64,000 nt of DNA from Patescibacteria group bacterium (GCA_049319825.1 JBMORT010000009.1:3349-67348); one strand, 5' to 3'; positions 18,062 to 55,250 are shown, numbered from the stretch's first letter. Translations and numbers: made by a program. Notes: generated by a model from the sequence alone, not told the origin.

Positions 18062-18215
18062 GTTCTCTTATATTGTTGGCTATTATGGCTCGATATGTCT
18101 GCCGCACGATTTAATGAGGCCTCTGGCCTCGATTATCAACCTCCTGATAATCATCCGTGCGACAGATATATCGAAAAATAATAATCGACATGCTTGTCGA
18201 AAAAAAGGAGGAAAT

Positions 18216-27171: not shown

Positions 27172-28764
27172 ATGGATAAGAGATTAGCAGATAAAAAATG
27201 GCGTATAAACCATTTATATAAAATTAAAGATAAAGACGGGAAAACAATTCAATTCAAATTGAATCGAGCGCAAAAGGAGTTTTTTGAAAAAAAGCACACG
27301 AAAAATATTATCTTAAAGTCAAGGCAGTTGGGATTTACGACGCTGGAAGCCATAGACATGCTGGATGACGCCTTATTCACAAGGAATTACGACGGATTAT
27401 TGATAGCTCACGAAAAGGAAGAGGCGCTCGATATATTCGACAATAAAATAGATTTTAGCTGGAAAAACTTGCCGGAGCCGATTCAGCGATTATACCAAGT
27501 CGATACTGATCGCGCGAATAAAATCAAGTTTGGTTTTGGGGATAATACTTTCAGCAGTTTATCGGTAAAATTATCCGGTCGTTCTGGGACATATATGCGA
27601 GTCCACATTTCGGAATTTGCTAAGATTTGTAGGAAATATCCCATAAAAGCAAAGGAAATTATAAGCGGAACGTTTCCGTCCGTGCCGATTGACGGCAGAA
27701 TAGACATTGAAAGCACGGCAGAGGGCGAATACGGGGAGTTTTATGAGATGTTTTGGGAAGTATGGAATAGAGGAGAGCCGGAAAACGAATCGGAATATAA
27801 GGCGTTTTTCTTTAATTGGACTTATGATGACGCCGAAATAAACAAAATAATTCATATAATTCCGATTGAAGAAATGGATCAATCGAATAAATTCGCTGAA
27901 ATAAAAGCAAGATATTCATTATCGGATAAACAAATTACATATTATTATCAGAAATGGTTATCGTTAAAAAAAGATTGGAATGTTCTGAAGCAAGAATATC
28001 CCACGACCCCGGAGGAAGCCTTTGTCAGTTCCGGCGGGAAACACTTTGACATAGAGAGTATTGAAAGGCAAAGACAATACATTAAGCAGGGCGAGAAAGT
28101 CGGATATTGGATATTTTTCAAAGAATACCGGCCAAATCATAATTATGGTATTGGATCCGATGTCAGTGAGGGAGTAGGTCAAGACGCAAGCTCGGCCCAA
28201 ATAATTGACTTTTCATTGAAGACGCCGGCAATTGTGGGAGCATATTATAACGATAAAATAGCTCCGGATTTATTCGCCTATGAGCTTAAAATGGGCGGTG
28301 AAAAGTATGGAATGGCGGTTATAGCGGTAGAGAGAAACAATCACGGTTTTGTTACTTTAACCAAACTAAAAGAAATTTATCCCGTTCACAAGATTTTTAA
28401 AGAAGTTGTCCCCGATGTTTTAACTCAAAAACCGACGGATAGGCTGGGCTGGAAAACGACTTTATCAAGCAAACCTAAAATGTTATACGATTTGAAGACT
28501 GCATTGATTGATGACGCAATAGAAATACCTTGCGAGGCGACGATTCATGAATTAAGAACATACCCAAGCGAGGACATTCAAGCATTAAAGGTTAAAGATG
28601 ACGTGGGGAAGCATTGGGACCGAGTAATGGCGCTGGCGATCGCATACCAAATGAAAAATCACATTGATCAATATGAAGATATTGAGGACGAAATAGATTG
28701 GGAGCGTGAAGTGCGGGAGTTCCGTGGTAAAAAAGAGAAAAACATTCATAATAGATTTAGATAA
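27172..28764 (+). CDS. Terminase large subunit
   Basis: 530 aa. N-terminal ATPase with LKSRQLGFTT, a C-terminal nuclease-like half and the packaging-module position. Confidence 0.7.
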   Translation: MDKRLADKKWRINHLYKIKDKDGKTIQFKLNRAQKEFFEKKHTKNIILKSRQLGFTTLEAIDMLDDALFTRNYDGLLIAHEKEEALDIFDNKIDFSWKNLPEPIQRLYQVDTDRANKIKFGFGDNTFSSLSVKLSGRSGTYMRVHISEFAKICRKYPIKAKEIISGTFPSVPIDGRIDIESTAEGEYGEFYEMFWEVWNRGEPENESEYKAFFFNWTYDDAEINKIIHIIPIEEMDQSNKFAEIKARYSLSDKQITYYYQKWLSLKKDWNVLKQEYPTTPEEAFVSSGGKHFDIESIERQRQYIKQGEKVGYWIFFKEYRPNHNYGIGSDVSEGVGQDASSAQIIDFSLKTPAIVGAYYNDKIAPDLFAYELKMGGEKYGMAVIAVERNNHGFVTLTKLKEIYPVHKIFKEVVPDVLTQKPTDRLGWKTTLSSKPKMLYDLKTALIDDAIEIPCEATIHELRTYPSEDIQALKVKDDVGKHWDRVMALAIAYQMKNHIDQYEDIEDEIDWEREVREFRGKKEKNIHNRFR

Positions 28765-28766
28765 TT

Positions 28767-30545
28767 ATGACGCAAGACAATGTTTTTGAGCGAATAAGAA
28801 ATTACGAAAATGATTTTTTGAATAAAAAGGCCAAGATTGTTGGCGGATATTATTTCGATCAGCTTGAGACGATAAAAAGAATCCATTTATATTACGCCTC
28901 GCAGTTTGATAACGGCAACAGCGATGAGTTTGGATATAAATATTTTTATAATGAATCGAAGCCGCGCTGTAAAAACGCCACTAAAAACATAGATTTTGAT
29001 ACAAAGGATATTCAAATTAAGGCGGTAAACGGCGGGCTTGATTATCATAAGGCGATGATAATGAGAACGGATGTCCGGAGGTGGATGCGCCAAAGACAAT
29101 TAGGCAAGGTTATAAACGAATCCGTGATCAAGGTGCCGCGATATGGAACGTTTGTTTTAAAAAAATCAAATTCAAAAAAAATAGTTGAGCCGGTGGATTT
29201 GAGAAATATCAAATGCGATACCACGGCGAACTCATTGCAGGATACTTGGGTAGTAGAAGATCATTATTACACCACCTCGGAATTGCGGAAAATGAAGGAT
29301 ATTTGGAATAGTGAGGCAATAGAGCTCGCGATTAAAAGCTTTATAACGCATAGAAAAGAAAATTATGATGATGGCGAGATAAGCGAGAGTGGAGAAAAAG
29401 GAAACGCGCAATATATTTTGGTTAAAGAGTTTTATGATGATGTCCCCGAAAATTGGGTTGTAGATAATGGAGACAATGAAAAACAGGTTTTGGCGCAGTT
29501 CGTGGTGATTATGCCGGAGGATTCTGAGAAAAAAGGAAGCCAAAATGATAATAAAAAACAAGGATTAACCCTGTTTAAAGAGGTTTTAGAAGACGGAAAA
29601 AAGGATTATAAAGAAGTTCATTATGACAGAATTGACGGCCGCTGGCTTGGATGTGGAATCGTCGAGGATAGTTTTGATGGCCAGATGATGAAAAATGAAT
29701 ATATCAATCAAATAATGTTATCAATTAGATTGTCGAATTTAATTCTTTTTCAGACCGAAGACAAGACTTTGGCTAAAAACATTTTATCTGATTTGATGAA
29801 TGGTGACATTTTAAAAGTGAAAGGAATTATTAACCGAATAGACACAACGAATAGAGGAACGCAGGAAAACACGATATTAAACTCTGAAATAGAAAATTTA
29901 TTAAATAAATTATCAAATTCGTTCGAGGTTACTACCGGTGAAAGCATGCCGTCGGGGACGCCGCTGGGACTTGGTCAAATGCTAAATCAAAACGCGAATA
30001 AATTATTTGATTTTATTCGTGAAGAAATAGGGATGTTTTGGCAAGAAGTTTTTGAAGATTGGATCATGCCGGAAATAGAAAAAGATTTAAATAAAGAACA
30101 TATTTTAGAAATTTTAGATAAGGATCAAATAATTTTACTTAACGAAGCGGTAAAAAAAGACAAAGTTTGGGAAGCTATTAAAAAACGAATATTGCAGGGG
30201 CGCGGCACTCCGACACAAGAAGACATACAAAACGCAATGCAGATTATTGATGATCAATTCGCGACAAAAGACACTATTTATCTTGATTTGCCTAAGGATT
30301 TTTACAATTTCAAAAAGTCCGTTGAATGCTATATAACAGACGAAAGGTATAATAAAATGGAGCGCTCTCAAACGCTGATGACGATATTGCAAACAGTTGG
30401 CGGGAATCCGCAATTACTCGATCATCCGATATTCAAACAATTACTTGATTGGGCTCAGGTGGCCCCGTTTAACATGCCAAAGCAAGGCGCGCCAGAGCCA
30501 AATGTAAATAACGCGCCAATGCCGGCGCCGGCGATGAATAAATAA
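28767..30545 (+). CDS. Putative portal protein
   Basis: 592 aa gene directly after the large terminase. No diagnostic motif. Confidence 0.5.
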   Translation: MTQDNVFERIRNYENDFLNKKAKIVGGYYFDQLETIKRIHLYYASQFDNGNSDEFGYKYFYNESKPRCKNATKNIDFDTKDIQIKAVNGGLDYHKAMIMRTDVRRWMRQRQLGKVINESVIKVPRYGTFVLKKSNSKKIVEPVDLRNIKCDTTANSLQDTWVVEDHYYTTSELRKMKDIWNSEAIELAIKSFITHRKENYDDGEISESGEKGNAQYILVKEFYDDVPENWVVDNGDNEKQVLAQFVVIMPEDSEKKGSQNDNKKQGLTLFKEVLEDGKKDYKEVHYDRIDGRWLGCGIVEDSFDGQMMKNEYINQIMLSIRLSNLILFQTEDKTLAKNILSDLMNGDILKVKGIINRIDTTNRGTQENTILNSEIENLLNKLSNSFEVTTGESMPSGTPLGLGQMLNQNANKLFDFIREEIGMFWQEVFEDWIMPEIEKDLNKEHILEILDKDQIILLNEAVKKDKVWEAIKKRILQGRGTPTQEDIQNAMQIIDDQFATKDTIYLDLPKDFYNFKKSVECYITDERYNKMERSQTLMTILQTVGGNPQLLDHPIFKQLLDWAQVAPFNMPKQGAPEPNVNNAPMPAPAMNK

Positions 30546-30548
30546 AAT

Positions 30549-30779
30549 ATGAATGAGCAATTGGAAAATATAAGTATTGCTGAGTTGGTTAAGGAGAAAT
30601 TGGATAAATACGCAAGAGAGATGCTGTCTAAGTCTTATAATACGGCGGATAACAACGAAATAGCGATCGAAGCGCTGGGCCGACAAAAGGCGTTCGAGAT
30701 AATACAAGATTTAATCAAAGATATTGATATTGAAATTTCGGCAAAAGACAAAAAAAAGATAATGAATCGGTATAGATAA
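30549..30779 (+). CDS. Hypothetical phage protein
   Basis: 76 aa ORF. Confidence 0.35.
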   Translation: MNEQLENISIAELVKEKLDKYAREMLSKSYNTADNNEIAIEALGRQKAFEIIQDLIKDIDIEISAKDKKKIMNRYR

Positions 30780-30867
30780 ATTGACAATCAATAAACAGGG
30801 TTGAAATTCAAGGCGATCAGCTGAGCCTTGAAAGAGATTAGCTCAACCCTGTTCTCTTTCAAAAGCT

Positions 30868-30897
30868 CGGCAGATCACCTTGATCTGCCGTTTTTTT
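30868..30897 (+). terminator. Rho-independent terminator
   Basis: CGGCAGATCACCTTGATCTGCCG followed by TTTTTTT. A second hairpin AACAGGGTTGA...TCAACCCTGTT lies upstream. Confidence 0.8.
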
Positions 30898-30947
30898 ATC
30901 GGCAAATACGAGAAAAAACTCGAATTAAAAATTAAATTGTCAATTTT

Positions 30948-31610
30948 ATGTCTATTGAAGACAAAGATGGTTATCAAGACCATAACGCAAATCTTGATGA
31001 AGACGACACTTCTAAAAACGAAGACAAGCTTGATGAAGAAGAGTTTGAAGATGATGAAGATGAAGAAAAATCAAACGAACCAGATTCAAGCAAAAAAACA
31101 GAGGATAAAACCTCTAAAAAAGACCTTGATGCAAAAACAATTCTCGCGCAGAAAAAAAGGTGGCGCGAGAAAGCTCAAAAACTTGAGCAAGAGTTGGCCG
31201 AATATAGAAAGAAACAAGATGAGAGCGAGAAGGCCGAGGACAAGACTCCGAAAAAAATAAATTCCGAAACAAGATTGCTTCGAATGGAATTGAGACAGAC
31301 GTTTTCCGATAAGCAATTGACCGACGAAGACATTGATAAAGCGGTTGCTTTATCAAAAGTCGAAGGGTCGTCGCCCGAAGACGTCATAAAATCTCCTTTA
31401 TTTGAGGCTTATTTGGAAAAAAGAGCGAAAAAAGAGTTAAGGGAAAAAGCAACGCCCTCGCCGTCAAATCGTGGTGGCCAGGCCAAACATGATTTTTCCG
31501 ATATTACTCCGGAGAAAATTCGCAATATGGACGAAAAGGAGTATGCGGAATATCAAAAATGGCGAAAATCACAGGATTCCGGTGGAAGGTTGCGGTTTAT
31601 TCAAGATTAA
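30948..31610 (+). CDS. Putative scaffolding protein
   Basis: Highly acidic coiled-coil-rich 220 aa protein (DEDDTSKNEDKLDEEEFEDDEDEEK) upstream of the capsid candidate. Confidence 0.45.
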   Translation: MSIEDKDGYQDHNANLDEDDTSKNEDKLDEEEFEDDEDEEKSNEPDSSKKTEDKTSKKDLDAKTILAQKKRWREKAQKLEQELAEYRKKQDESEKAEDKTPKKINSETRLLRMELRQTFSDKQLTDEDIDKAVALSKVEGSSPEDVIKSPLFEAYLEKRAKKELREKATPSPSNRGGQAKHDFSDITPEKIRNMDEKEYAEYQKWRKSQDSGGRLRFIQD

Positions 31611-31629
31611 ATAACTAAACATTTATCGT

Positions 31630-32820
31630 ATGGCGAATAGTTTAACCGCGCTAAATAAAGAGATATGGTCTCGGAACATGCAACTCGTCCGAGAAAAAAC
31701 TCTTTGCGCGATGAGAATTTGTAATTTCGAGTTGCGCAAGGGATTAAGTGATGGAGATAAAGCAAATAAACCTTATAGATCAACACTGAAAGCCGTTGAT
31801 TATACTAAGGGATCGGATGTCACGGCGCAGGATGTTACCGCGACTAACGAATATTTGGATGTCGATCAGGTAAAATGCGTGCCGATTTACGTGGATAACG
31901 TTGATAAGGTCCAGAATAGTTATAAGACGATGGAAGATTTTTCAAAAGACATGCAGGCCGATTTGTCCAGACAAGTCGACGCGAAAGTGTTATCTGAATA
32001 TGATAACGCTACATCTGATGTCGACGATGGCGATATTGGCGGCACGGCATCCAGTTCAGCTGTAATTACTCCATCGAACGTAAACAGATTATTTACTGCG
32101 GCAGGTAAAAAATTAACCAATCAAAATGTGGGTATGGATAGCAGGTTCGCTGTTATCTCTCCGTCAATCCTTGAGATGATCCAGTTATATTTGGGTTCAA
32201 AGGATACTGATTTTGGCGAAAAAGTGGCGATGAATGGTCTTGTCGGCAACAGGTTCGGCTTCGAGGTGTATGTGTCGACTAACTTGACTTATACCGCCAA
32301 ATGGACTCCGGCCGATAATCCCGCTGATACCGCAACGATTACCATTAACGGAGTAACGTTCACCTTCGTTGCAACGATTGGCACGACTCCTGGGAATGTT
32401 TTACAAACCACCAGTTTAGCGGTTACTCTCGATAATTTGGTGGACTTAATCAATAATCCATCTTCGACTACGGCTAATCATGTGGCGTTAAGTCAGGCCA
32501 GTCAGGTTTTGCTGGAAGGATGTGTTGCTACTGATGGAACAACTTACTTGGGTATTGAGTTTGTGGGCGGCGGAGAAGTGGCCGTTACAACATCAGAGGC
32601 TGCGGATGTATGGTCTGTCGAAACTGTCCATTGCTTATTCGGTCAAAAGGGAGCGATTGACTTAGTTTTGCAAAGAGCGCCCGGAATTGGCTTTAACCAA
32701 GAGCCGAAGAGACTGCCGGGTTCTGGTAATTTGATTGCATGGGATTTATACGGGCTGAAAACCTTCGCGGATGGCGCGAAAGGCCTTGTCGATGTCAATG
32801 TTGATAGTTCAGCTTTCTAA
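31630..32820 (+). CDS. Putative major capsid protein
   Basis: 396 aa gene following the scaffold, with an SD-less tight junction. Assigned by position only. Confidence 0.45.
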   Translation: MANSLTALNKEIWSRNMQLVREKTLCAMRICNFELRKGLSDGDKANKPYRSTLKAVDYTKGSDVTAQDVTATNEYLDVDQVKCVPIYVDNVDKVQNSYKTMEDFSKDMQADLSRQVDAKVLSEYDNATSDVDDGDIGGTASSSAVITPSNVNRLFTAAGKKLTNQNVGMDSRFAVISPSILEMIQLYLGSKDTDFGEKVAMNGLVGNRFGFEVYVSTNLTYTAKWTPADNPADTATITINGVTFTFVATIGTTPGNVLQTTSLAVTLDNLVDLINNPSSTTANHVALSQASQVLLEGCVATDGTTYLGIEFVGGGEVAVTTSEAADVWSVETVHCLFGQKGAIDLVLQRAPGIGFNQEPKRLPGSGNLIAWDLYGLKTFADGAKGLVDVNVDSSAF

Positions 32821-38502: not shown

Positions 38503-39180
38503 ATGCAATTTAGCGCTTTACGAACCAAAGCTCGCTGGTGGAGCAAAACGGACTCAGATTCCTTTTCGGACACGGATTTGAATTTGTGTTTGAACGAAAA
38601 TCAGAAAATAGTTACCTGTTGGATTTTGGATAGTATGGATGAATGGGAGTTTAATGAAGAAATTGGCACGGCCAGTTTGGTCGCTGATCAAAGAGAGTAT
38701 TCATTCCCAACGGATATTCTAAAAATAAAAGAGGTTTATTTAAAACTTGACGGCACGAATTGGGTGCGAGCTTTGCCGCTTGAAGGGGCTATGCAGGATT
38801 ATATCGATAATACTGATATTAAAGACCACTATTCGAACGAACAGCCCTATTATGACGTATATAACACGGACGGGGTGGGGTATTTTAAAATATATTGCGG
38901 GGCGATTATCGCGGTAACCGGCGGCATTAAACTTGTTTACGAAAAAGCCGGCAATGATATGAGCGCGGATGCCGACACTCCGGCCTTTAATGTGTTGTTT
39001 CATGAAGTTTTAGCGCTTATATCGGCCCAGGATTACGCGAGCAGAGAAAGCTTGGCAAGTTTATATAATTCATTAGAGGTCAAAAAAATTGAATATAAAG
39101 AACGAATCGAAAATTTCTATTCACGCCGGCAATTGGATCGGCCGTTAAGATTAGAACCTAAAACACGAAATATGAGATAA
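38503..39180 (+). CDS. Hypothetical virion protein
   Basis: 225 aa ORF. Confidence 0.4.
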   Translation: MQFSALRTKARWWSKTDSDSFSDTDLNLCLNENQKIVTCWILDSMDEWEFNEEIGTASLVADQREYSFPTDILKIKEVYLKLDGTNWVRALPLEGAMQDYIDNTDIKDHYSNEQPYYDVYNTDGVGYFKIYCGAIIAVTGGIKLVYEKAGNDMSADADTPAFNVLFHEVLALISAQDYASRESLASLYNSLEVKKIEYKERIENFYSRRQLDRPLRLEPKTRNMR

Positions 39181-41597: not shown

Positions 41598-43721
41598 ATG
41601 GCGCAAGCAACGCTTATCAATAAAACAGGACAAAAAGTGGTAGTCGAATCCGGCTCGCAAGACGCTCAGAAATATTTCGGGCAAGGTTATCAATTAATGA
41701 GTAAAAGCGGTAAATATGAAGAGCCGACTACGCCTGATCAATTAAAACAGGGGGTTCCCGGATTCGTACAAAATAGACCATTGACGCAGACCGTGCAACA
41801 GCAAGCCCAGCAATTCGGGAATACAAAACTTGCCAATCAAGACTATGTGCAAGGCACTTTTAAGGCTTTGCATGGCAGACCCGCCAATGCCAACGAATTG
41901 CAGGAATTTACGAATAAGGGTGTTTTGGATGTATATAAGGCAATAAAAGCCGGTATTCCCAAAACGACAAGTCTTGATGTCGGTAAAATCGGGAATACTT
42001 TCTCGCCGGATGTTATAGGCAAATCCGAATCCGTGCCGGACTTATCGCAAGTTCCACAGCCGACCGCGCCAAAAACAGCGGAAGCTTTTAAGACTGCCAT
42101 TGATCAAAACTTAACCGGCCTGGCCAATCAGATGGGCAGTTTGTATAACATGATGCAATCCGAGGCGGAGACAAAGCGCCGGGAAGAAGAATTAAAATTG
42201 AAAGATAGAGAAGGTAAATTTGAGGCGACATTAGACGAAACGCCACGTTCGGATTACTTCGAGGCTAAAAGCGAGGAATTTAAGATAAAGGAGAAATTCG
42301 ACGCGCTTAGTGAGATATATAATAAAATCAATACTCATAAATCAGCGCTGGATTACGGATTGATACAGGAAGCCGGCAAGCCAATTTCTTATAGATTGAT
42401 TCAGGGACGCTCGGCCGAAATGAAAATGCAGGCTTCGGCGGCTATTTCGGCATTATCAGCGACAGCCTCGGTTATTGAAGGCGACATTAACGCGGCCCAG
42501 AATTTCATTCAAATGGGCGTAGAAATGATTGACGCGGACAGACAAGATCAAATTGACGGATTAAAATGGCTGATTGGATTAAGTGAAGATAGGATTATCA
42601 GACTTGACGAAAAAGAAACCGAAATGGCCGAAGCTCAAATCGCTTTGCTTGAAGATGAGAGACAGCAGCAAAAAGAAGACCTTAACTTTGTCAGGGAGCT
42701 TATAATGTCAAATCCCGTTGAAGCACAGGATGCAGGAATTACTTTATTAGATGGTATTGATGAGGCAATAACCAAAATACAGCCAGTGTTAGCTGATACA
42801 GTGAGGCAGGAAAGATTATTGGCAGCAGAAAAAACACTTGGAGATGAATGGGTTTCGATTCCAGAAGGCAGGATATTGAATAAAAAGACTGGTGAAGTAA
42901 GAAGTGCGACAGGATTTCAAGGAGATGTAACAGTAACTCATCCACAAGTTGGACAATGGTCCGGTCAATGCGGAAGCTTTGCGCGTTCTCAGTACAGTTA
43001 TATTGCCAATGGCGAACCAATGGGCGATTTATACACACAAAAACAGGCGTGGGTAAATAAGCATGGAACAGTTGGTGTTGACGGCTTGCAGGTTGGTGAT
43101 TTGATGATTACAAGCGAAGATAGTAAATATGGGCATGCTTTAATAGTGGCTGAAATAAAAGACGGTAAAATGAGATGCTTAGAATCGAATTATAATCTGG
43201 ACGAAAAAGTCACTGATAGCCGCTGGTTATCTTTGGATAGCAGCAAAATTTACGGTTATGTCAGGGGTACTTTGAAGCCCGGACTTCTAAATGTGCCGGC
43301 AATAAACGAAAAAGAAGAAATGAGGAATGAATTAGCAACGCTTGCGGGTTCAGACGGTTTTGTCTCGCCAGATGATTATACAGTAGCTCGAAAGGCATGG
43401 ATAGACGCCGGGCTTGATCCCAGCGAATTTGATAAAGAATACGCCGGATTTAGAAATCCAAACAATCCATATTACGTGACAAATAAACAAAAAGAAGGAG
43501 AGGTCGCTGGACAATTTTTAAGTATGGATTGGTTTAAACAAACATATTCACAGGATCAATTAAAAGAAGCAGCTAAAAACGCCGGATATGCGAGTATTTG
43601 GAAAGGATCGGAAAAAGAAATAGAAGCTTATTTAGACGCGACGATGAAAACAATTGAAGCGTGGAGACAAGCAGGTAAAACGGATTCGGAAATATTAGAG
43701 GAAATGATGAAAAATAAATAA
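41598..43721 (+). CDS. Virion-associated protein with a CHAP/NlpC-P60-like cysteine peptidase domain
   Basis: Cys motif QCGSFARSQY and His motif GHALIV about 55 aa apart (nt ~42930-43230). A long coiled-coil lies N-terminal. Confidence 0.6.
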   Translation: MAQATLINKTGQKVVVESGSQDAQKYFGQGYQLMSKSGKYEEPTTPDQLKQGVPGFVQNRPLTQTVQQQAQQFGNTKLANQDYVQGTFKALHGRPANANELQEFTNKGVLDVYKAIKAGIPKTTSLDVGKIGNTFSPDVIGKSESVPDLSQVPQPTAPKTAEAFKTAIDQNLTGLANQMGSLYNMMQSEAETKRREEELKLKDREGKFEATLDETPRSDYFEAKSEEFKIKEKFDALSEIYNKINTHKSALDYGLIQEAGKPISYRLIQGRSAEMKMQASAAISALSATASVIEGDINAAQNFIQMGVEMIDADRQDQIDGLKWLIGLSEDRIIRLDEKETEMAEAQIALLEDERQQQKEDLNFVRELIMSNPVEAQDAGITLLDGIDEAITKIQPVLADTVRQERLLAAEKTLGDEWVSIPEGRILNKKTGEVRSATGFQGDVTVTHPQVGQWSGQCGSFARSQYSYIANGEPMGDLYTQKQAWVNKHGTVGVDGLQVGDLMITSEDSKYGHALIVAEIKDGKMRCLESNYNLDEKVTDSRWLSLDSSKIYGYVRGTLKPGLLNVPAINEKEEMRNELATLAGSDGFVSPDDYTVARKAWIDAGLDPSEFDKEYAGFRNPNNPYYVTNKQKEGEVAGQFLSMDWFKQTYSQDQLKEAAKNAGYASIWKGSEKEIEAYLDATMKTIEAWRQAGKTDSEILEEMMKNK

Positions 43722-43723
43722 AT

Positions 43724-46700
43724 ATGTTTCAGGGTTTATTTACGCAATCAAAAACAGTAGCTACAAATCAGAAAACGGGGGGGACTGCAAAGCCCTCTTT
43801 TTCTGGTTTGTTTAGTAATAGAGGGGAACAAAAAGCTCAAAAAAACAATAAATTTGCTGGAGCGGTTATCAGCGCTGATCAAAAAAAGGTCGGGATGTTT
43901 AAAGATTTATTTAAGGTTGGGAAAAAAGGATATGAACGGGCTGGTGATATAGCCAGTAAAAAATGGAGCGAGACGAAAGAATTTGTAAAAAAATATCCGA
44001 CCCCACTTGAGTATATATCTCAAAGGAAATATGAGGGGTGGGCCGGACAAAATAAAAGTTTATCAATTCGGAAACAATATGGATTCGCACTGCCGGAAAT
44101 AACCGATTTAACAAAATCGGGGTTTGATCCCGAATTATTGGAAAAAGCGAATGACTTTAAAAGTATTCCATTAAGACATAAAATAACTCAATTTTCTCTG
44201 CGTACTCAAACGCAATTAGTGGATCAAGTATCAAGAAGTTTTGCTTTTACTACGGATTATATAATGAAAGACCCTGTTCGCGCGGCCGCATTACGAGATA
44301 TGGCAAAGAATCCTTCGATTTTGGGGGGATTTAAAGCCGGGGCTACTTACGCTGCTGGGAAGTTTGTAGAAAAAACAAATACGGGAAAAATGTTAAAAGA
44401 TAAATGGGTTAATTTTTATGATGGCCTCAAAGAAAAAGGGATTATTCCAACAGATAAGGCAGTCCAGCTTGCGAATACAATGAAGCAATTACCATATATG
44501 CAGAATAGAAAAGAATGGGAAGGTGCTCCACTAAAAGATAAAATGACAAAATATTTAGGAGAAACTTTATATAATCTTGGACCAAGTTTATTTGCGTCTG
44601 TGGCGACTTATGCCGCCAGTCCGTCTTTTGGTTTTTCCGTAACGGCCAGTTCAACCGCATATGATGTAAAAGAAGATGCCATAAGATATGGCGTTGATGA
44701 AAAAAAAGCTGAAAATTTGGGATTAATAACGGGTTTGTTGGTAGCGTCGCTTGATAAGATTGTGCCGGATAAAGCTTTCTCGAAGAATATAAAAAATAAA
44801 TTCATCGGAAACTTTGCAAAAAGGATTATAAAAAGTAATGTGCTTGAAGCCGGAACGGAAATGGGACAGGAGAATATTCAAATTTTAGCTGAAGCGACTT
44901 TCAGGGATGATTTGGGTTGGGACGAAATCAAGACGCGCAATGCGATGGCGGCTTTGGGTGGGTTGGCCGGTGGTAGTGCAATGGAATCAATAAGCACGTT
45001 TAGTAATACAGTCCAGAGAGACGCGCTTTTTGAGGATATACGAAATATAAAACCCGGATTTACAGTAGAAGAGGTTTATGATGATAATTTAATGAATGAG
45101 GCGAAAAAATATAAAACGGCAGAGGATTTTATTGTAGCGGCTGAAAATAAAAAGATTGATGTATCTTCTATTGCAGAATGGTCGGATTTAAAATTTTCTG
45201 ATTTGGGGAAAATAGGAAATATTAAAACAAAAAGTCCGATATTTAAAAAGAAAGTGAAAGATGTTTCAACCGAGATATACGAAAAAACGGCACGGGAAAT
45301 TTTTGAGAATGCAAAAAAGAATGGGGAAAGTTGGGCCAAAAACAGAAGATATGAAAGCGTGTTTTCGGAAGCATTCGCCCGTGCAACAGAAAAGTTGACT
45401 CGTGGAGGTAGAATTGGAGAAAAGGAAGTATTGGATGGTTGGAGTAGAAAGGTATTAAAAGAAATATGGACTACAGCACAATATAAAACAAAATCACCTT
45501 CTGACACAAAACGTGCTCTGTCTGAAGACCGCCTCGTCAATGTTAATAATAAAACTCATAAATACAAGAGTGTGAAGGAGCAAGTAAAAATACCTTATGC
45601 AAAGTCGCTTATACAAAAAGCATTTGATAAAGACTTGCCAAACAAGACGCCAGAATATATCCAAGACTTACTTGTTAAATTACGAGATGAAGAAGCACGG
45701 GCAATTAGAAACGGGGTTGATACGAGCAAAACTTCTTATACACAGGCTGGATTTATCAACGAAAATCTCAAACAGGCACTTGACAACGTAATAAAAACCA
45801 AATCTCAACTCCAAGAAAAATTTGAATATAACACGCCAGCGATCATAGAAGCCCGGGAAAAGGCAATGTCTATTCCCGAGACAATAAATATACAAACAGA
45901 AGAACGAAATAATTTGAGAGATAAAATTGTTCGAGAATATTACGGAACGGGAGCAAAAAATAAAAACCGACGCGCCGATTTAGTTTTAGGCGTGCCTGCT
46001 TCTGGAAAATCGACCTTTTTTGGCGACCATTTAGTTAATAAGTATGGTTCACTATTGGTTGATTCTGACCAAATTAAAAAGATGTTGCCGGAATATGAAA
46101 ATGGCATTGGCGCCAGTTCGTTACACTTAGAGTCTGCTATGCTTGCCGATGATATTATCCTATCCAATGCGATACAAAATGGTGATAATGTTGTGTTGCC
46201 CAGACTTGGGAAAAACGAAAAAACGATGATTGAGCTTATAAATTTATTGAATGATTCGGGGTATGATGTTCACTTGCATTACATGGATTTACCAATAAAA
46301 GAAGCGGTCAAGCGTATAATATCAAGATTCAATGAAACGGGGCGTTTTGTTGACCCACAATTTTTAATAGAAAAAGTTGACGGAAAACCCAAAATAGTGT
46401 ATAATGCAATCAAGAGTAGAAAGGAGATTAGATCTTATGAAGCATACTCAAACGATGTTCCAAAAGGAACAAAGCCAAAACTCATCGAAAAGTCAGTATA
46501 TGACGCTGGACGAGATGGACGAATACAGCAATCTCGTGGCGATCAGGACTTTGCGAAGATTCGTAGCAAAAAAGAAAGGGAAATAAAACAGACTCAAAAA
46601 AAATCTGAAAATGAGTATTTTTCGGATAACGGGTCTGTTTTTGAATACAAAGAAATGTCTAAGGAAGAAACAAAAACAATGCAACAAGCATTTGGCGTAG

Positions 46701-49252
46701 TGGACGGAAAATCTGGATTTAGTTTTTCACAAGAAAAAGAAGAACAATATAAACAATTCAAAAAATTAAAATTAAGAAAATTAGACGAAATCGAAGATGC
46801 TACACAACTAAAAGAAAAATATCCGAACATGAATATTGATAATATTTTATATTCGCAAGAGCAATCAGGGGATGAAGTATTTGATGATTTTAAGGACAGA
46901 CTTTTAGCCGAGAGGGAAGCAAAAAAACAACAGATCGAAATACGGAGAGAAAAAGCTGAAAAAAACTGGGCCGTAAAATTGGAAAGGTCCAGAATTTACA
47001 AAACTATAATCAAAAGAAGGAAAGAGGTTAAAAATATAAAAGGTTTTTTCAAACTATCCGATGTTGACTTGAAACGCATAAATGGCAAGGATTGGCGATT
47101 TATGGATGAGGTTGAATATAAAATGTTTTTAGATGAAATAAAAAGAAAAGCCATGCAATTCACGGAAAAGAGAGAAGCTAAAAATAAATTGATGGCCACT
47201 ATACAAAGTAAAGAATTGAAAAATACCGACGATCTAAGAAAAGCAATGAAGCTCCCGTCAATTGATCAAATGACAGTCGCGCAAATGGAGCAATTCAATA
47301 AAGCACTCGAGCCGTACATGGAAGGAGATGTGTTTTTAAGTCAAAGGTTATTGGAGACTGTTGAAAATACAGAGCTGGGAGAATATAAAACATATAGGGA
47401 AGTTCAAGAACATCTATCTAAAAAGCTGGGGGTTCCGATCGCCGAATTAAAAGAAATTAAAGCCGGCTGGGTTGAAAAGTCTTTATATGACACTGCTTTG
47501 GCAAGGAAAAATCCATTTTATGCTTATGTTATAGATCAATTCAATAAATATGAATTGCAAGCTACAAAGGAATATTTGGATAGGAAAAAAGAAATAAATG
47601 TATTGGTTAATAAGGCAAGGAAATCCAGAGAACGAAGTTTGTTTGATAAACTTATTCCTACGGATAAAATCGTATTTGAATATTTGGAAAGCAACGATGC
47701 TTTAAAAGAGAAGTTATCGGAAGGAATGACAAAAGAAGAATTGGACTTGGCTGGATTTCTACAAGCTGATTTTTTCAGGATGCGCAATGAATTGATAAAA
47801 AAAGAAGCGTTAAAAAAATATAGAGAAAATTATATTACTCATGTGCAGCGAGGATTTTTAGAAGCGGTTAAGGATGGTGGATTAAAGGCTGGATTTGTGG
47901 AAATGTTTAAAAAATATAAATTTGAGGAAGCATATTTTAATATCATTGATGAAACCGGAAACGTCCTTGCGCTTGAAAAATTCTTTTCAAATTCATTACA
48001 TAGGACTGGGGAAGTCAGCCCTACTCAAAATGTCGCAAAAGCTTATTTAACTTATGTAAAATCTTTTGAAAAGAAGATGGCTTTAGATTCTGTAATTCCG
48101 GAAATAATGGCATATTCTCAGGTTTTAACAAAGGATGTCCGGACCCCGCGGGGACTTGTAAAAGATAAAACATTGATTACTTTTATGAAAAAGTGGATCA
48201 ATAATAAAAAGGGGCGGCGTCATAAATTATTTATTGAACAGGGAAATAGATTAGACGCTTTCATAAAAATATTAAATTCATTTATTACGCTTCGAGACCT
48301 GGGTTTTAATGTATATACTTCAATAGCTTCAAGGGTCGGAGAAAATGTAACAAATTTCGCTACGTTGGGCTTGAAAAAGTATGCTCTTGGTAGGGCGAGG
48401 GCAACCACTCAAAATGGCAGAAAAATATCAAAGCAATATGAAAATTTCATTGGAGAAAATCCGTTTTTAGATATAATACATGATTCAAGTCAGCACATTG
48501 GCGAAAAAACAATGAGGATGGCTTTTATTGGATTTGCGGACGCCACATATAGGTCAAATAAACACTTTCTCCTTGGATCAATGACGAAAGAAGAATATGA
48601 AAGCGGGGAAATTTCGGACCAAAGATTGGCTGAATTGAGACGCGAAATGGGCAAGTATAGAGTCGTGGAAGGAGCAAAATCAATAATGGGAAGCACGACT
48701 GAGGGCGAAATGTTTTTGAAGTATAGAAGTTGGGCCGTGCCGACTTTGATGACAACTTATAGCAATATCAAAACATTGATTAAAATGGCCGGACAGAAAA
48801 AATTCGCAAAAACTGAATTTTTAGAATTGACAAGAATAACACTTATATCAATAAGTATGTATTTATTAATGGCTACTTTGTTTGATGACGATGATGATAG
48901 CTTTTTGGGGAAACTGGCAACAAAGGCAAAAAGAGAATCGATGTCTTTAATTGAAGCATTAAAACCCACAACGTGGGCGAGTACATTTAGGATGCAAGCT
49001 TTTTTCATTGACTTGGCAAAAAACGTTATGTCAATGATCAATATGGAAAAATATAAAACAAAAGAGGGATATAAGGGGTGGGAGGGATTGAAAAAAACAT
49101 TAAAGCCGACTATGGTCAGTCAGATACAAGGATTTTTTGGAAACGAAAAAGAAGACGAAAAGTCTTCTGCGTTGCCAAGCCTGCCCAAATTACCGTCCCT
49201 TCCTCAATTACCCGGCTTGCCGGCGTTGCCGTCTTTACCTTCCTTACCATAA
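43724..49252 (+). CDS. Giant virion/ejection-type protein (1842 aa) with an embedded zeta-toxin-like P-loop kinase domain and a C-terminal (LPxLP)n repeat
   Basis: Walker A GVPASGKST. The LVDSDQIKKMLPEY and ASSLHLESAMLADD blocks (nt ~45950-46420) fit the zeta-toxin/PezT UNAG-kinase fold. C-terminal TM helices are ITLISISMYLLMATLF followed by a DDDDD stretch. The tail is LPSLPKLPSLPQLPGLPALPSLPSLP. Confidence 0.7.
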   Translation: MFQGLFTQSKTVATNQKTGGTAKPSFSGLFSNRGEQKAQKNNKFAGAVISADQKKVGMFKDLFKVGKKGYERAGDIASKKWSETKEFVKKYPTPLEYISQRKYEGWAGQNKSLSIRKQYGFALPEITDLTKSGFDPELLEKANDFKSIPLRHKITQFSLRTQTQLVDQVSRSFAFTTDYIMKDPVRAAALRDMAKNPSILGGFKAGATYAAGKFVEKTNTGKMLKDKWVNFYDGLKEKGIIPTDKAVQLANTMKQLPYMQNRKEWEGAPLKDKMTKYLGETLYNLGPSLFASVATYAASPSFGFSVTASSTAYDVKEDAIRYGVDEKKAENLGLITGLLVASLDKIVPDKAFSKNIKNKFIGNFAKRIIKSNVLEAGTEMGQENIQILAEATFRDDLGWDEIKTRNAMAALGGLAGGSAMESISTFSNTVQRDALFEDIRNIKPGFTVEEVYDDNLMNEAKKYKTAEDFIVAAENKKIDVSSIAEWSDLKFSDLGKIGNIKTKSPIFKKKVKDVSTEIYEKTAREIFENAKKNGESWAKNRRYESVFSEAFARATEKLTRGGRIGEKEVLDGWSRKVLKEIWTTAQYKTKSPSDTKRALSEDRLVNVNNKTHKYKSVKEQVKIPYAKSLIQKAFDKDLPNKTPEYIQDLLVKLRDEEARAIRNGVDTSKTSYTQAGFINENLKQALDNVIKTKSQLQEKFEYNTPAIIEAREKAMSIPETINIQTEERNNLRDKIVREYYGTGAKNKNRRADLVLGVPASGKSTFFGDHLVNKYGSLLVDSDQIKKMLPEYENGIGASSLHLESAMLADDIILSNAIQNGDNVVLPRLGKNEKTMIELINLLNDSGYDVHLHYMDLPIKEAVKRIISRFNETGRFVDPQFLIEKVDGKPKIVYNAIKSRKEIRSYEAYSNDVPKGTKPKLIEKSVYDAGRDGRIQQSRGDQDFAKIRSKKEREIKQTQKKSENEYFSDNGSVFEYKEMSKEETKTMQQAFGVVDGKSGFSFSQEKEEQYKQFKKLKLRKLDEIEDATQLKEKYPNMNIDNILYSQEQSGDEVFDDFKDRLLAEREAKKQQIEIRREKAEKNWAVKLERSRIYKTIIKRRKEVKNIKGFFKLSDVDLKRINGKDWRFMDEVEYKMFLDEIKRKAMQFTEKREAKNKLMATIQSKELKNTDDLRKAMKLPSIDQMTVAQMEQFNKALEPYMEGDVFLSQRLLETVENTELGEYKTYREVQEHLSKKLGVPIAELKEIKAGWVEKSLYDTALARKNPFYAYVIDQFNKYELQATKEYLDRKKEINVLVNKARKSRERSLFDKLIPTDKIVFEYLESNDALKEKLSEGMTKEELDLAGFLQADFFRMRNELIKKEALKKYRENYITHVQRGFLEAVKDGGLKAGFVEMFKKYKFEEAYFNIIDETGNVLALEKFFSNSLHRTGEVSPTQNVAKAYLTYVKSFEKKMALDSVIPEIMAYSQVLTKDVRTPRGLVKDKTLITFMKKWINNKKGRRHKLFIEQGNRLDAFIKILNSFITLRDLGFNVYTSIASRVGENVTNFATLGLKKYALGRARATTQNGRKISKQYENFIGENPFLDIIHDSSQHIGEKTMRMAFIGFADATYRSNKHFLLGSMTKEEYESGEISDQRLAELRREMGKYRVVEGAKSIMGSTTEGEMFLKYRSWAVPTLMTTYSNIKTLIKMAGQKKFAKTEFLELTRITLISISMYLLMATLFDDDDDSFLGKLATKAKRESMSLIEALKPTTWASTFRMQAFFIDLAKNVMSMINMEKYKTKEGYKGWEGLKKTLKPTMVSQIQGFFGNEKEDEKSSALPSLPKLPSLPQLPGLPALPSLPSLP

Positions 49253-49449
49253 TCTTTCTCCAACGCTTTATAAACGGAATACCATGAAAAAATAAAGAAT
49301 ATTGGCAAGAGTATTTCTTTATAATTTCCTTTATCTGTAATAAGGAAAATAACAAAAAACCAGATACACGCTCCTATAAAACTTTTGATATATAATTTTT
49401 TTTGTGGGGACATATTATGATATTTTATAATTCGTATTCTCGATAACAA
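49204..49449 (-). CDS. Small two-TM membrane protein
   Basis: 81 aa. It overlaps the 3' end of the giant gene on the opposite strand. Confidence 0.35.
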   Translation of the reverse strand: MLSRIRIIKYHNMSPQKKLYIKSFIGACIWFFVIFLITDKGNYKEILLPIFFIFSWYSVYKALEKDYGKEGKDGNAGKPGN

Positions 49450-49799
49450 TTATCAATTTTAGTTTGTTTATCAGCATCGGCTTTATTCCATGTGCTTGTA
49501 GCGGCCGAAATTGTGCCGTCATCGTTTTTAATGCCATTTAATTCCATATAAGTCCAATAACTTTCCTCAACTTTACTTAAACAATTATCAAGGCTCCATT
49601 TTTTCATTTTTTGTTTAAATTCCGTAGCTTCTTTTTCTTTTTGTTCGGCTTCAAAAATTGATTTTTCTTGATCTATTTGCATTTGTGTTTGTTTTTCTAT
49701 GGAATTTTGTTTGTTTAATTGAATGAGAATAAGACTGCCGCCAATGATCAACCCGCACATAATTATAGCTATTGATAAAATGATATATTTTTTATCCAT
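49425..49799 (-). CDS. Membrane-anchored coiled-coil protein (minus-strand moron-like gene)
   Basis: 124 aa. N-terminal TM ILSIAIIMCGLIIGGSLILI. It is driven by the minus-strand promoter at 49843-49871. Confidence 0.45.
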   Translation of the reverse strand: MDKKYIILSIAIIMCGLIIGGSLILIQLNKQNSIEKQTQMQIDQEKSIFEAEQKEKEATEFKQKMKKWSLDNCLSKVEESYWTYMELNGIKNDDGTISAATSTWNKADADKQTKIDNCYREYEL

Positions 49800-50524: not shown

Positions 50525-50567
50525 GCTTTGTTATGGTAGAAGTGGAGACAAAAAAATACCTAGATAA

Positions 50568-50640
50568 AGGGGCGGGCAGACTCGAACTGCCAACTTAGGG
50601 ATTAGTAGTCCCTTGATCTGTCCAATTGATCTACGCCCCC
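50568..50640 (-). tRNA. tRNA with a canonical cloverleaf but an atypical anticodon loop CUACUAA (nominal anticodon ACU)
   Basis: The reverse strand folds into a complete cloverleaf: GGGGGCG TA GATC AATTGGACA GATC A AGGGA CUACUAA UCCCU AAGUU GGCAG UUCGAGU CUGCC CGCCCC U. The D-loop GG, the T-loop TTCGAGT, a 5-bp anticodon stem and a short variable loop are all present. Position 1-72 is a G-U wobble pair. CCA is not encoded. Confidence 0.6.
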
Positions 50641-50654
50641 TTATCTGGGTATTT

Positions 50655-51268: not shown

Positions 51269-52192
51269 TTGTTATTTCAATTATACAATATGCGGTTAAG
51301 TTTGGCAATAAAACAATTTACGGAGTGGCGCGCGTTGAAGGTCGGGCAAAACACGAATCAAGGCTACGAATTGGTTTTGAAGCAATTTTGTTTGTTTATG
51401 AAAAACTGCGAGATTGAAGATGTGCAATTATCGCATATTGTTGAATGGTTTTCGATGATGCAAGAGCTCGGCTGGGATTCAAATAGTTTTGTAATCAAAT
51501 CAACCGCGTTGCGCAAATTTTTTGAGTTTAATAAAAAGCAGGGATTTGAGGTTTTGGATCCATGGTTTATTTTCACGCCCAAGGCAAAATTCAAAATTCC
51601 TCGCATTATTACCGAGGAAAACTACCAGAAGTTATTATCAGCCATACCTGATAATAACGATCCCCGTCATATACGAAACAAGGCTATAATTTCGCTTCTG
51701 TGGGACACGGGAGCCAGAAACGGGGAAATTGTCAGCTTAGATATTCAAGGCCTCGATTTGGTCAATTTCAAGGCTTTAATCTACACAGAAAAGTCGAAAG
51801 GGGCAAGGCCGGTGAGGGAGATGTTCTGGACAGAGGAAACGAATAAAAATCTCCTGCGATGGATTGACCGGCGAGAGCATTTGTCGCAAAAAATGAAATG
51901 GATTGATCCCGAGGCTCTTTTCGTCTGCGTCAGCTTCCATGCCGGAGAGAGATTGACGATCAAGGGTGTTGGAGAAATGCTACGCCGGTATTCTAATCAA
52001 GCAGGAATCGAAACGATGAACGCGCATAGTTTCCGTCATCACTTGGGCCGCGAAATTATTAAACGGGGCGGGACTAATGCCGATGTGATGAATGTTCTCG
52101 GCCATGCGACGCTGGAAAGCACGAAGCCCTATACATGGCTTGAAAATAAAGAAATCGAGAAGCGATATAGGAGTCTCAAGTTATCCACATAA
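51269..52192 (+). CDS. int: Tyrosine-type site-specific recombinase (phage integrase)
   Basis: 307 aa. An N-terminal SAM-like core-binding domain and a C-terminal catalytic domain with R (WDTGARNGE), HxxR (HSFRHHLGR) and the Y of TKPYTWL. Confidence 0.85.
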   Translation: MLFQLYNMRLSLAIKQFTEWRALKVGQNTNQGYELVLKQFCLFMKNCEIEDVQLSHIVEWFSMMQELGWDSNSFVIKSTALRKFFEFNKKQGFEVLDPWFIFTPKAKFKIPRIITEENYQKLLSAIPDNNDPRHIRNKAIISLLWDTGARNGEIVSLDIQGLDLVNFKALIYTEKSKGARPVREMFWTEETNKNLLRWIDRREHLSQKMKWIDPEALFVCVSFHAGERLTIKGVGEMLRRYSNQAGIETMNAHSFRHHLGREIIKRGGTNADVMNVLGHATLESTKPYTWLENKEIEKRYRSLKLST

Positions 52193-55249: not shown

Positions 55250-55250
55250 T

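Follow-up and report, generated by a model that had tools for sequence, protein, structure and literature searches.

A giant Patescibacteria prophage protein with an embedded zeta/AvrRxo1-type kinase: a candidate virion-delivered polyvalent protein

Here, we show that the largest gene of a Patescibacteria prophage encodes a mosaic protein of 1842 amino acids, in which a P-loop kinase of the zeta/PezT/AvrRxo1 type is embedded between N- and C-terminal modules shared with other giant phage proteins. On balance, we think it rather likely that this giant is a 'polyvalent' internal-virion (ejection) protein, whose cargo kinase is catalytically intact and probably engages its substrate in a mode other than that known for UDP-GlcNAc (UNAG) in zeta toxins. 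The notion of an injected effector, raised by the original prediction, appears to be the best reading of the gene position combined with the virion proteomics of a relative from the cyanophage P-SS2; packaging, ejection, timing and substrate class are the parts of the model that we infer.

The window, i.e., the whole stretch of DNA analyzed here, comprises 64,000 nucleotides; coordinates are counted from its first nucleotide, and all features listed with coordinates lie on the plus strand. The giant gene (43724..49252) is a single, uninterrupted open reading frame with an ATG start and zero internal stops. Its product is identical to NCBI MFZ5365442.1, which derives from a 259,546-bp contig and is recorded as 'MAG: zeta toxin family protein [Patescibacteria group bacterium]'. 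Homologue alignments define a conserved N-module (aa ~149-439; 44168..45040), all-alpha in an AF2 model, which constitutes the family signature common to other giant phage proteins. It is followed by a variable region (aa 440-692; 45041..45799), in which neither homologues nor domains were detected, by the P-loop kinase domain of the zeta/AvrRxo1 fold (aa 693-945; 45800..46558), recognized by Pfam, profile, AF2 and Foldseek analyses, by a charge-rich linker (aa 946-1096; 46559..47011) with no detected homologues, and by a conserved C-module (aa 1097-1817; 47012..49174), which is 39% identical to the giant protein P0002 over 744 aa. Within the C-module, a hydrophobic TM-like helix (aa 1702-1720) directly precedes the acidic patch DDDDD (aa 1721-1725; together 48827..48898). 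An LPxLP-type repeat forms the C-terminus of the protein (aa 1817-1842; 49172..49249). The Asp run and the repeat had been noted before; of the several TM helices noted with them, the Kyte-Doolittle scan of the giant retained one strong segment. The kinase is the sole effector domain recognizable by Pfam and PHROGs. Phage_Mu_F gave no Pfam match at E≤1, and PHROGs returned only a function-less family covering the kinase and a marginal 'methyltransferase' match (E=0.007), which we disregarded. The approximately 1500 residues that carry no domain assignment could conceal undetected domains. A compositional break flanking the kinase region was looked for, and none was found.

[quoted passage not shown] Pfam Zeta_toxin (PF06414) matches aa 747-889 (45962-46390) with 43.8 bits (cut-off 22.3, E=2.6e-11), well above what chance would give, and AAA_33 scores 30.7 bits. 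When a profile of the kinase clade was compared with PDB sequences, zeta (1gvn) came first (E=7.9e-13), followed by Pnkp1 (3e-8), PezT (4.7e-6) and AvrRxo1 (6e-4). The AF2 model of aa 693-945 is of high confidence (pLDDT 92.3, pTM 0.88), and the first twelve Foldseek matches in the PDB are all zeta (3q8x/1gvn), AvrRxo1 and PezT structures, with E values from 1.5e-9, obtained for zeta, to 2.7e-7 and TM-scores of 0.53-0.61. The domain shares the fold, the Walker A Lys, the catalytic Asp and the two lid Arg residues with zeta and PezT (1gvn, 3q8x, 2p5t), albeit at TM-scores of only ~0.57, and it is larger by a helical extension of ~55 residues at the N-terminus and by a beta unit at the C-terminus. 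Unlike the toxins of the epsilon-zeta and PezAT systems, it is embedded in an 1842-aa protein, is not accompanied by an antitoxin and does not conserve E116 and the GTXR motif.

The three motifs by which the kinase was first recognized are all present: the Walker A GVPASGKST (aa 756-764; 45989..46015), LVDSDQIKKMLPEY (aa 778-791; 46055..46096) and HLESAMLADD (aa 801-810; 46124..46153). In the alignment with zeta, the first of these supplies K762 (zeta K46), and the second holds the catalytic D782 (zeta D67), K785 and the PEY signature; the third contains the HLES clade signature (H801, E803, S804) on the same helix that bears E100 in zeta. The lid arginines R868 (zeta R158) and R874 (zeta R171) lie within RIISRFNETGRFVDP (46313..46357). 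Conservation of the catalytic positions among 142 clade members is nearly complete (K762 in 142, D782 in 140, R868 in 142 and R874 in 125), and that of the HLES signature is comparable (H 141/142, E 141/142, S 134/142); the motifs of the clade can be written as D-x-D-xx-K-xx-L-P-E-Y, H-x-E-S and R-F-xx-T-G-R-F-V-D-P. Judged by these residues, the kinase is catalytically intact and apparently active.

The substrate site differs. In zeta and PezT, UNAG binding is defined by E116/E100 together with the GTXR motif G117-T121 (PMC6362051). The zeta positions E116-T121 align to P826-R-L-G-K-N831 of the giant, so that LPRLGKN (46196..46216) stands in place of the E116-GTGR-T motif, which is not conserved. 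Within the 142 members, the E116 position is occupied by P in 118, G is found at the G117 position in 6 and T at the T118 position in 11, while the E100 position is variable (D810 in the giant). Given the lack of the GTXR motif throughout the clade, the substrate is probably not bound as zeta and PezT bind UDP-GlcNAc, and the earlier view that these motifs are typical of UDP-GlcNAc-phosphorylating zeta/PezT toxins is not supported. Since G119 is retained and most members have K in place of R120, UNAG may nevertheless be bound in an altered mode.

A search with the clade profile matched 8361 proteins, 745 clusters of them at E≤1e-30; among the best 150 of the 8361 matches, nearly all carry the kinase embedded in proteins of 500-4866 aa. 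In 67 sister proteins scanned, we found Phage_Mu_F (6), ddrB-ParB (6), ART-PolyVal (5) and LPD38 (3), and further Acb1, MuF_C, InPase, LPD3, NUDIX and RadC; clade members are fused to the ADP-ribosyltransferase domains ART-PolyVal, ADPrib_exo_Tox and DRAT. The clade includes cyanophage P-SS2 ORF030 (E=1.5e-57 with the clade profile) and gp109 of the haloarchaeal virus HCTV-1 (E=1.8e-35). By these sequence comparisons, the embedded kinases constitute a clade of their own, which is very large, tightly conserved and reaches archaeal viruses. As the catalytic machinery is kept, the UDP-GlcNAc motif is absent and archaeal viruses are included, the annotation of embedded kinases as agents of 'cell-wall poisoning' is probably wrong. 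One member, P0165, is a stand-alone chromosomal gene with neither a mobile context nor an antitoxin, and such members indicate that the kinase is not necessarily an effector. Our literature search for experiments on zeta-like kinases from phages, or on their substrate, found nothing past 'role unknown'; the function of this compact 250-residue domain, once assigned, could extend to hundreds of protein families.

P-SS2 ORF030 (1499 aa) and HCTV-1 gp109 (1210 aa, 'zeta toxin domain protein') resemble the giant in their PEY, HxES and RFxxTGR motifs, and in both the kinase is embedded in a protein of more than 1000 aa belonging to a head-gene cluster, although the kinase domains are only about 26-28% identical to ours. 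P-SS2 is a long-tailed phage and HCTV-1 an archaeal virus, and their kinases are fused to, or encoded beside, MuF/gpF head proteins near the portal; the giant, in contrast, occupies the terminal 'ejection-protein' position of a podovirus and has an unrelated scaffold. ORF030, in which MuF is combined with a kinase of the same clade, was found in purified virions with 96.5 peptides on average, a count for the whole protein; since these peptides are not domain-resolved and the original annotation of ORF030 was that of a capsid protein, its kinase part might be removed by cleavage.

Such proteins fall into a class that has been described before. Polyvalent proteins, which occur in phages as well as conjugative elements, combine several effector domains, 2-15 per polypeptide, and a zeta-toxin-like kinase is explicitly listed among their cargo (Iyer, Burroughs, Anand, de Souza and Aravind, 2017, J Bacteriol; PMC5512222). 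The giant belongs to this widespread class: it is very large and built of several modules, its gene lies among late/virion genes, its co-delivery with the DNA is predicted and its enzymatic cargo is exchangeable, and its sister proteins bear ART-PolyVal, LPD38, LPD3, ddrB-ParB, InPase, MuF and PBECR5. It departs from the classic members, which carry several effectors, in having one recognizable effector domain, and also in lacking a MuF, metallopeptidase or ArdC hub domain, in its N- and C-terminal scaffold without Pfam or PDB match, and in its host, a Patescibacteria genome. Toxin-type kinases in virion-delivered giants represent no new principle, having been computationally described in 2017 (PMC5512222), and the effector is less unusual than the original prediction suggested, as giant proteins that contain the same clade number in the hundreds among phages and mobile elements and the NCBI label already reads zeta toxin family. 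What the present case adds is a prophage-borne example from a Patescibacteria genome and the scaffold in which the kinase is set. The biology of Patescibacteria phages is scarcely explored.

The N-module is 27-41% identical to those of P0003-P0006 and 24% identical to that of P0002; these homologues (P0002-P0006) are 1171-2289 aa long, and the N-module protein of locus L007 has only 572 aa. The module also occurs in four IMG/VR contigs and in one metagenome contig, the single extra locus that a metagenome scan with the N-module added; a scan of species-representative genomes found no relatives. The hydrophobic helix with the acidic patch recurs in P0002, and P0064 and P0093, two giants that bear the kinase, share the C-module as well. 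The centres differ: P0004 has a PBECR5 nuclease, matched above threshold, and P0003 a ParB_N match that is weak and falls below threshold. Sequence comparison brings out a previously undescribed N-/C-terminal scaffold whose cargo varies across a set of phage genomes of ~40 kb, which look podovirus-like where tail or capsid genes can be assigned. The other structural proteins of the window showed no detectable similarity to the contigs carrying the N-module (tblastn), and since the module is shared without similar neighbour proteins, it may travel among otherwise divergent phages. No Pfam family matched the N- or C-module, and PDB searches gave no sequence or fold match to solved ejection proteins. 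For the N-module, the profile search of the PDB yielded nothing below E=0.09, and its AF2 model, all-helical and of low confidence (pLDDT 60), yielded nothing below E=0.9 in Foldseek. A DsbA-like PDB match of the C-module (E=7e-4, ~110 residues) was marginal and judged spurious, and no other PDB relative of this module was found.

The prophage, ~34 kb in length, is integrated between secA and secDF. Its ends are approximate; the search for att sites gave only an 11-bp repeat, as expected by chance. The structural block runs from TerL, portal and MCP through fibres, an M23 protein, an SU10 adaptor, a Kelch protein and a CHAP protein to the giant, its last gene, and this order agrees with the predicted placement of the largest prophage gene among virion genes. 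The large terminase, putative portal and major capsid protein (27172..32820) have podovirus-like relatives, and the SU10-type podovirus adaptor (38503..39180) is assigned by PF24175 (39.2 bits, cut-off 27). The gene adjoining the giant upstream encodes a 707-aa protein with a CHAP peptidoglycan-hydrolase domain (41598..43721), itself a candidate ejection protein. On the 3' side follow an ORF for a 124-aa membrane-anchored protein on the opposite strand, without family match, a tRNA and the tyrosine integrase (51269..52192) at the right prophage end. Homologues in loci L001, L004 and L005 hold the same terminal gene position, behind adaptor and LysM proteins. The related phage MW202577 has, at the equivalent place in its genome, an 878-aa protein with a Zeta_toxin domain, which shows no similarity to the giant in direct comparison.

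In the podovirus SU10, the genes following the tail genes encode head-borne ejection proteins, one of which is a peptidoglycan hydrolase (PMC9509320). The giant gene likewise comes after adaptor/nozzle-type tail genes, as do SU10 gp20-24, its neighbour contains a peptidoglycan hydrolase domain as does gp20, and the giant itself is large, helical and equipped with a hydrophobic segment, like podovirus ejection proteins. The ejection or internal/ejection proteins of podoviruses also include T7 gp14-16, and none of these SU10 or T7 proteins is known to carry a P-loop kinase. The podovirus-type adaptor, the CHAP protein and the last position of the giant fit an internal/ejection protein and not a tape measure, so that of the two alternatives first offered, ejection or tape-measure protein, the former is retained; by analogy, the giant is probably carried in the virion. 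In the mechanism that we propose, the helical N-module and the C-module, with its hydrophobic helix and acidic patch, would form a structural scaffold that brings the giant into the capsid and then out via the tail with the DNA, and the protein centre would be a swappable cargo slot, here filled by the P-loop kinase. The giant would be made late and packaged; in the next infection, it would be expelled into the new host along with its CHAP-bearing neighbour, and the kinase, on reaching cytoplasmic ATP, would act early in infection, adding a phosphate to a hydroxyl of a small metabolite of nucleotide type.

One candidate class of metabolites is suggested by AvrRxo1, a Xanthomonas type III effector that acts as NAD/NAAD 3'-kinase (PDB 4z8q-4z8v) and shows that a kinase of the zeta fold can serve as a delivered effector and not as a TA toxin. 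It matches the kinase model as well as zeta does (TM 0.59-0.61), the viral protein that fits the fold best, 1134 aa long, bears the name Anti-CBASS Acb1, and clade fusions to ADP-ribosyltransferases, NUDIX and Acb1, along with a probably non-UNAG substrate pocket, point in the same direction. Possibly, then, the kinase phosphorylates NAD+/NAAD, ADP-ribose derivatives or cyclic-oligonucleotide signals and thereby blunts NAD-depleting or nucleotide-signalling defences. The argument, however, is one of association; AvrRxo1 is a single-domain protein secreted into plant cells with a chaperone/antitoxin, its sequence match is weak, and none of its substrate-binding residues are known for comparison. 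We regard this reading, which is a sub-case of the preferred explanation and not a true alternative, as conceivable but rather unlikely, and grant the same low chance to its extension to the whole PEY/HxES clade, as enzymes delivered against NAD+/ADP-ribose-type or nucleotide immune signals at DNA entry and not as cell-wall-precursor kinases. If true, the latter would mean that immunity is evaded by a chemistry of a new kind, employed in this case by a phage of the poorly studied Patescibacteria.

We consider it unlikely that the kinase acts as a canonical zeta/PezT toxin, which would phosphorylate the 3'-OH of UDP-GlcNAc, block MurA and peptidoglycan synthesis and so weaken the wall for DNA entry, takeover or lysis. 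This role was proposed by Iyer et al. for the zeta-like kinases of polyvalent proteins (PMC5512222), and it accords with zeta being the closest solved relative by sequence and fold, with the conserved catalytic K, D, R and R, with the retained G119, the conservative K at R120 and D810 aligned to E100, as well as with the peptidoglycan hydrolases encoded nearby, which lend the region a cell-wall theme. Against it stand the replacement of E116, G117, T118 and T121 by P, R, L and N, a site at which T118 is so rarely kept in the clade, the lack of an epsilon/PezA-type antitoxin among the neighbours and the stand-alone chromosomal member without antitoxin; moreover, MurA poisoning takes a generation, too slow to aid DNA entry. 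The same clade also occurs in HCTV-1, and haloarchaeal hosts are not known to have murein or a MurA pathway.

A polynucleotide 5'-kinase, which in the manner of T4 Pnk and Pnkp1 would phosphorylate the 5'-OH ends of RNA or DNA and repair host-nuclease damage to tRNA or phage DNA ends on entry, appears improbable. The kinase domain of Pnkp1 is indeed the second-best PDB sequence match (E=2e-4 when the single sequence of the giant served as query), several PNKs occur among the fold matches and domains directed at RNA, PBECR5 for one, are found in sister giants; yet zeta, AvrRxo1 and PezT all rank above every PNK by fold, the catalytic Asp is followed by D-xx-K, as in zeta, and not by D-xx-R, and no phosphatase or ligase partner domain was detected in the giant or its neighbours.

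Slightly less credence still can be given to a giant that is not injected, being a non-virion or assembly-only factor whose kinase acts late in the producing cell, as a lysis helper or in nucleotide metabolism, or as an addiction/abortive-infection toxin. Through late co-expression with structural genes, the cytoplasm would contain active kinase until the protein is packaged, zeta toxins are classic addiction toxins, and the virion evidence for the giant itself is indirect. The fixed terminal position in the structural blocks of unrelated phages, the MuF fusions, the presence of P-SS2 ORF030 in virions and a conserved, TM-bearing C-module typical of ejection proteins nevertheless favour delivery in the virion. 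A TA toxin was rejected, as the gene lies within a structural operon and lacks an antitoxin gene.

That the giant is the tape measure of a long-tailed phage with an incidental enzymatic domain is highly improbable, and we rejected it on tail type and gene order: great length, a largely helical make-up, hydrophobic segments and the frequency of lytic domains in tape measures would suit it, but the adaptor is of the SU10 podovirus type, the MCP relatives are mostly short-tailed phages (podoviruses), tail-tube, sheath, chaperone and tape-measure families were found in no ORF, the genes after the giant (small membrane protein, tRNA, integrase) include no distal tail genes, and homologues ranging from 572 to 2289 aa by cargo swapping are unfit as a length ruler.

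The giant protein of this prophage is, as had been predicted, encoded by a single ATG-initiated reading frame of 1842 codons without stops (43724..49252, forward strand), and it is identical to GenBank MFZ5365442.1, 'MAG: zeta toxin family protein [Patescibacteria group bacterium]', from a 259,546-bp contig. The motifs quoted in the original prediction lie on the forward strand where it had placed them, namely the Walker A GVPASGKST at aa 756-764 (nt 45989-46015), LVDSDQIKKMLPEY at aa 778-791 and HLESAMLADD at aa 801-810. Of the predicted C-terminal features, the acidic run DDDDD (aa 1721-1725) and the LPxLP-type repeat (aa 1817-1842) are present, but in place of several TM helices the protein contains a sole strongly hydrophobic 19-mer (aa 1702-1720), immediately N-terminal to the acidic run.

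The giant belongs to Pfam Zeta_toxin (PF06414; aa 747-889, E=2.6e-11, 43.8 bits, cut-off 22.3) and also matches AAA_33 (30.7 bits), the two families proposed for it. An AlphaFold2 model of aa 693-945, based on an alignment of 41 homologous sequences, was confident (pLDDT 92.3, pTM 0.88), and a Foldseek search of the PDB with this model returned zeta toxin (3q8x/1gvn; E=1.5e-9) at the top, followed by AvrRxo1 and PezT, with adenylate and polynucleotide kinases ranking below them. A profile built from 36 sequences of the clade and searched against all PDB chains yielded zeta (7.9e-13), Pnkp1 (3e-8), PezT (4.7e-6), Neisseria zeta_1 (5.5e-4) and AvrRxo1 (6e-4). Since both searches place zeta first, the kinase fold claimed in the original prediction stands, and we consider the domain to be a zeta-fold kinase, predicted from sequence and model to be active. 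The same searches bear on two alternative substrates. A kinase acting on NAD or an immune signal would be in keeping with AvrRxo1, which ranks second by structure and last of the five named matches by profile; a polynucleotide kinase would be in keeping with the second rank of Pnkp1 by profile, and polynucleotide kinases rank lower by structure.

Kinases of this clade, marked by PEY and HxES motifs, are very abundant and uncharacterised, which is part of the residual value of the finding. Among 1.84 billion cluster representatives, the kinase profile matched 8361 (745 at E<=1e-30), and the best 150 of these were nearly all embedded in proteins of 500-4866 aa. Pfam found Zeta_toxin in 67/67 clade giants scanned, together with Phage_Mu_F (6), ddrB-ParB (6), ART-PolyVal (5), LPD38 (3), RadC (2) and one case each of Acb1, MuF_C, InPase, LPD3, NUDIX, ADPrib_exo_Tox and DRAT. 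Among viral structures, the kinase model was matched best by BFVD A0A6J5LTH6 (TMq 0.78), a segment of an 'Anti-CBASS protein Acb1' of 1134 aa from an uncultured phage; this name and the Acb1 domain in 1/67 giants link the clade to anti-CBASS phosphodiesterases in the same polypeptides. Stand-alone members also occur: a 337-aa protein of a conjugative element (L010, 8001-9014) adjoins T4SS coupling-protein and VirB4 genes and has many near-identical clusters among the matches listed. A late intracellular or addiction role is a rival reading. A 230-aa member in L011 (4412-5104) is an ordinary-looking chromosomal gene directly 3' of a purU-like gene and without an antitoxin, which speaks against the clade being toxic by nature.

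The kinase motifs were originally described as typical of zeta and PezT toxins, which phosphorylate UDP-GlcNAc (UNAG). Using the zeta numbering (K46, D67, E100, E116-T121, R158, R171), confirmed against a printed alignment, we found the catalytic residues K46, D67, R158 and R171 retained as K762, D782, R868 and R874, but the UDP-GlcNAc-binding E116-G-T-G-R-T121 replaced by P826-R-L-G-K-N831. UNAG kinases are defined by their UDP-GlcNAc-binding residues, GTXR plus E116/E100 (PMC6362051), and the giant departs from this definition both at the substrate motif and in the antitoxin test. Counts over 142 domains from a representative library show that absence of the motif is a property of the clade: K762, D780 and R868 are kept in 142/142 and D782 and K785 in 140/142, while the E116 position is Pro in 118/142 and the T118 position is Thr in only 11/142. 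The clade has a near-invariant signature of its own, PE(Y/F), H801 (141/142), E803 (141/142), S804 (134/142) and RFxxTGRFVDP, also borne by cyanophage P-SS2 ORF030 (clade-profile E=1.5e-57) and haloarchaeal virus HCTV-1 gp109 (1.8e-35). Haloarchaea are not known to have murein. The role of such viral 'zeta toxins' has been reviewed as unknown (PMC4284463). Thus, the fold of the original proposal holds, but UNAG phosphorylation with MurA poisoning is not supported for this domain and is an unlikely mechanism.

Around the kinase, the giant is a mosaic of previously undescribed scaffold modules. A whole-protein search retrieved five relatives (1171-2289 aa, on 26-42-kb contigs). The N-module (aa ~149-439) shows 27-41% pairwise identity to four of them and 24% to P0002, and the C-module (aa 1097-1817), including the hydrophobic helix and following acidic patch, is common to the giant and P0002 (39% identity over 744 aa). 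The centres are unrelated, with a PBECR5 nuclease domain in P0004 and a weak ParB_N in P0003. A few kinase-clade proteins contain the modules (N-module in P0010 and P0019, C-module in P0064 and P0093). In IMG/VR phages, the N-module occurs in proteins down to 572 aa (L007, 9818-14378, followed by a separate 946-aa ORF) and 995 aa (L008, 6636-9623), so some relatives may have the giant in separate pieces or without its cargo. The protein belongs with, and works like, the polyvalent proteins: Iyer et al. (2017; 'Polyvalent proteins') discuss PBECR and ddrB-ParB and place such phage proteins among virion genes, as probably injected (PMC5512222), and these domains, along with ART-PolyVal, LPD3 and LPD38, whose Pfam names refer to polyvalent proteins, recur in relatives of the giant or in kinase-clade giants. 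Because this concept is published and the protein was already annotated as zeta-family, the 'unusual effector' of the original prediction is not a new principle. An identity as a MuF fusion was rejected by the membership test.

The Patescibacteria (CPR; NCBI assignment) prophage context adds to what remains new. The element is a complete-looking, podovirus-like prophage of ~34 kb (about 18.0-52.5 kb of the window), flanked by host secA (15204-17996) and secDF (53222-56168), with AAA_24, PD-(D/E)XK and HTH/DnaD-like replication/recombination genes and a tyrosine-type integrase as its last gene (51269-52192). Its att sites were not established, since the sole flanking direct repeat, the 11-bp GCTATTATGGC at 18079 and 53216, is about as expected by chance. 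The structural genes run from small and large terminase through a putative portal (592 aa), major capsid protein, fibre-like proteins (depolymerase-C, CBM_4_9), M23 peptidase, SU10-type adaptor (PF24175, 39.2 bits), Kelch-motif protein (552 aa), a 219-aa protein and a CHAP protein (707 aa) to the giant. Cultured relatives of the capsid protein include Pelagibacter HTVC phages, HMO-2011, Anabaena A-4L and Clostridium perfringens phages, which we take to be podoviruses. A tape measure, as the place of the giant might suggest, was rejected on tail type and gene order; family searches of the ORFs matched none to tail tubes, sheaths, tail chaperones or tape measures.

Homologous giants in contigs L001, L004 and L005 also close the structural block, after genes for an adaptor, a protein of ~600 aa, a LysM protein and one of ~540 aa. 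Virions of phage SU10 contain five proteins (gp20-24, gp20 being a peptidoglycan hydrolase) that are gone after genome release (PMC9509320). In MW202577.1 (39.6 kb), which comes closest among GenBank phages when portal and capsid are compared, the same genome position (27283-29919) encodes an 878-aa protein annotated 'thymidylate kinase' with its own Zeta_toxin domain (aa 735-816, 31.5 bits), yet direct comparison revealed no similarity to the giant, which suggests independent recruitment of a zeta-type kinase to the terminal slot. Experimental evidence that such a protein is in the virion is limited to one relative: P-SS2 ORF030 (Phage_Mu_F, aa 154-270; same-clade kinase, aa 427-597) gave on average 96.5 peptides, not mapped to domains, in purified virions (PMC2784084, Table 2). 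We propose that the giant, as an injected polyvalent-type protein, would be made late, packed inside the capsid and expelled along with the DNA; its CHAP neighbour would open the wall, its helical and TM-bearing modules may take part in trans-envelope passage, and the kinase, on gaining access to cytoplasmic ATP, could, at an early stage of infection, phosphorylate a small substrate of nucleotide type.

Several other genes of the region deserve mention. A tRNA-Ser (50566-50641, reverse strand) is not at an edge of the element but within it, in the interval from the giant to the integrase, and may be phage-encoded or mark a composite element. Just downstream of the giant, on the opposite strand, a 124-aa ORF (49425-49799) with an N-terminal membrane anchor, its own promoter-like sites and no family match may serve in lysogenic conversion or superinfection exclusion. 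The terminase genes are preceded, at a distance of a few kb, by an HNH_3 endonuclease gene (23763-24668, forward strand), an arrangement common among cos/HNH-dependent packaging systems. Finally, in the 675-aa SecD homologue of the host (53222-55249, forward strand), a peptidyl-prolyl isomerase domain of PPIC type (Rotamase, aa ~237-352) is inserted between SecD P1 sub-domains, an unusual fusion of translocon subunit and foldase.
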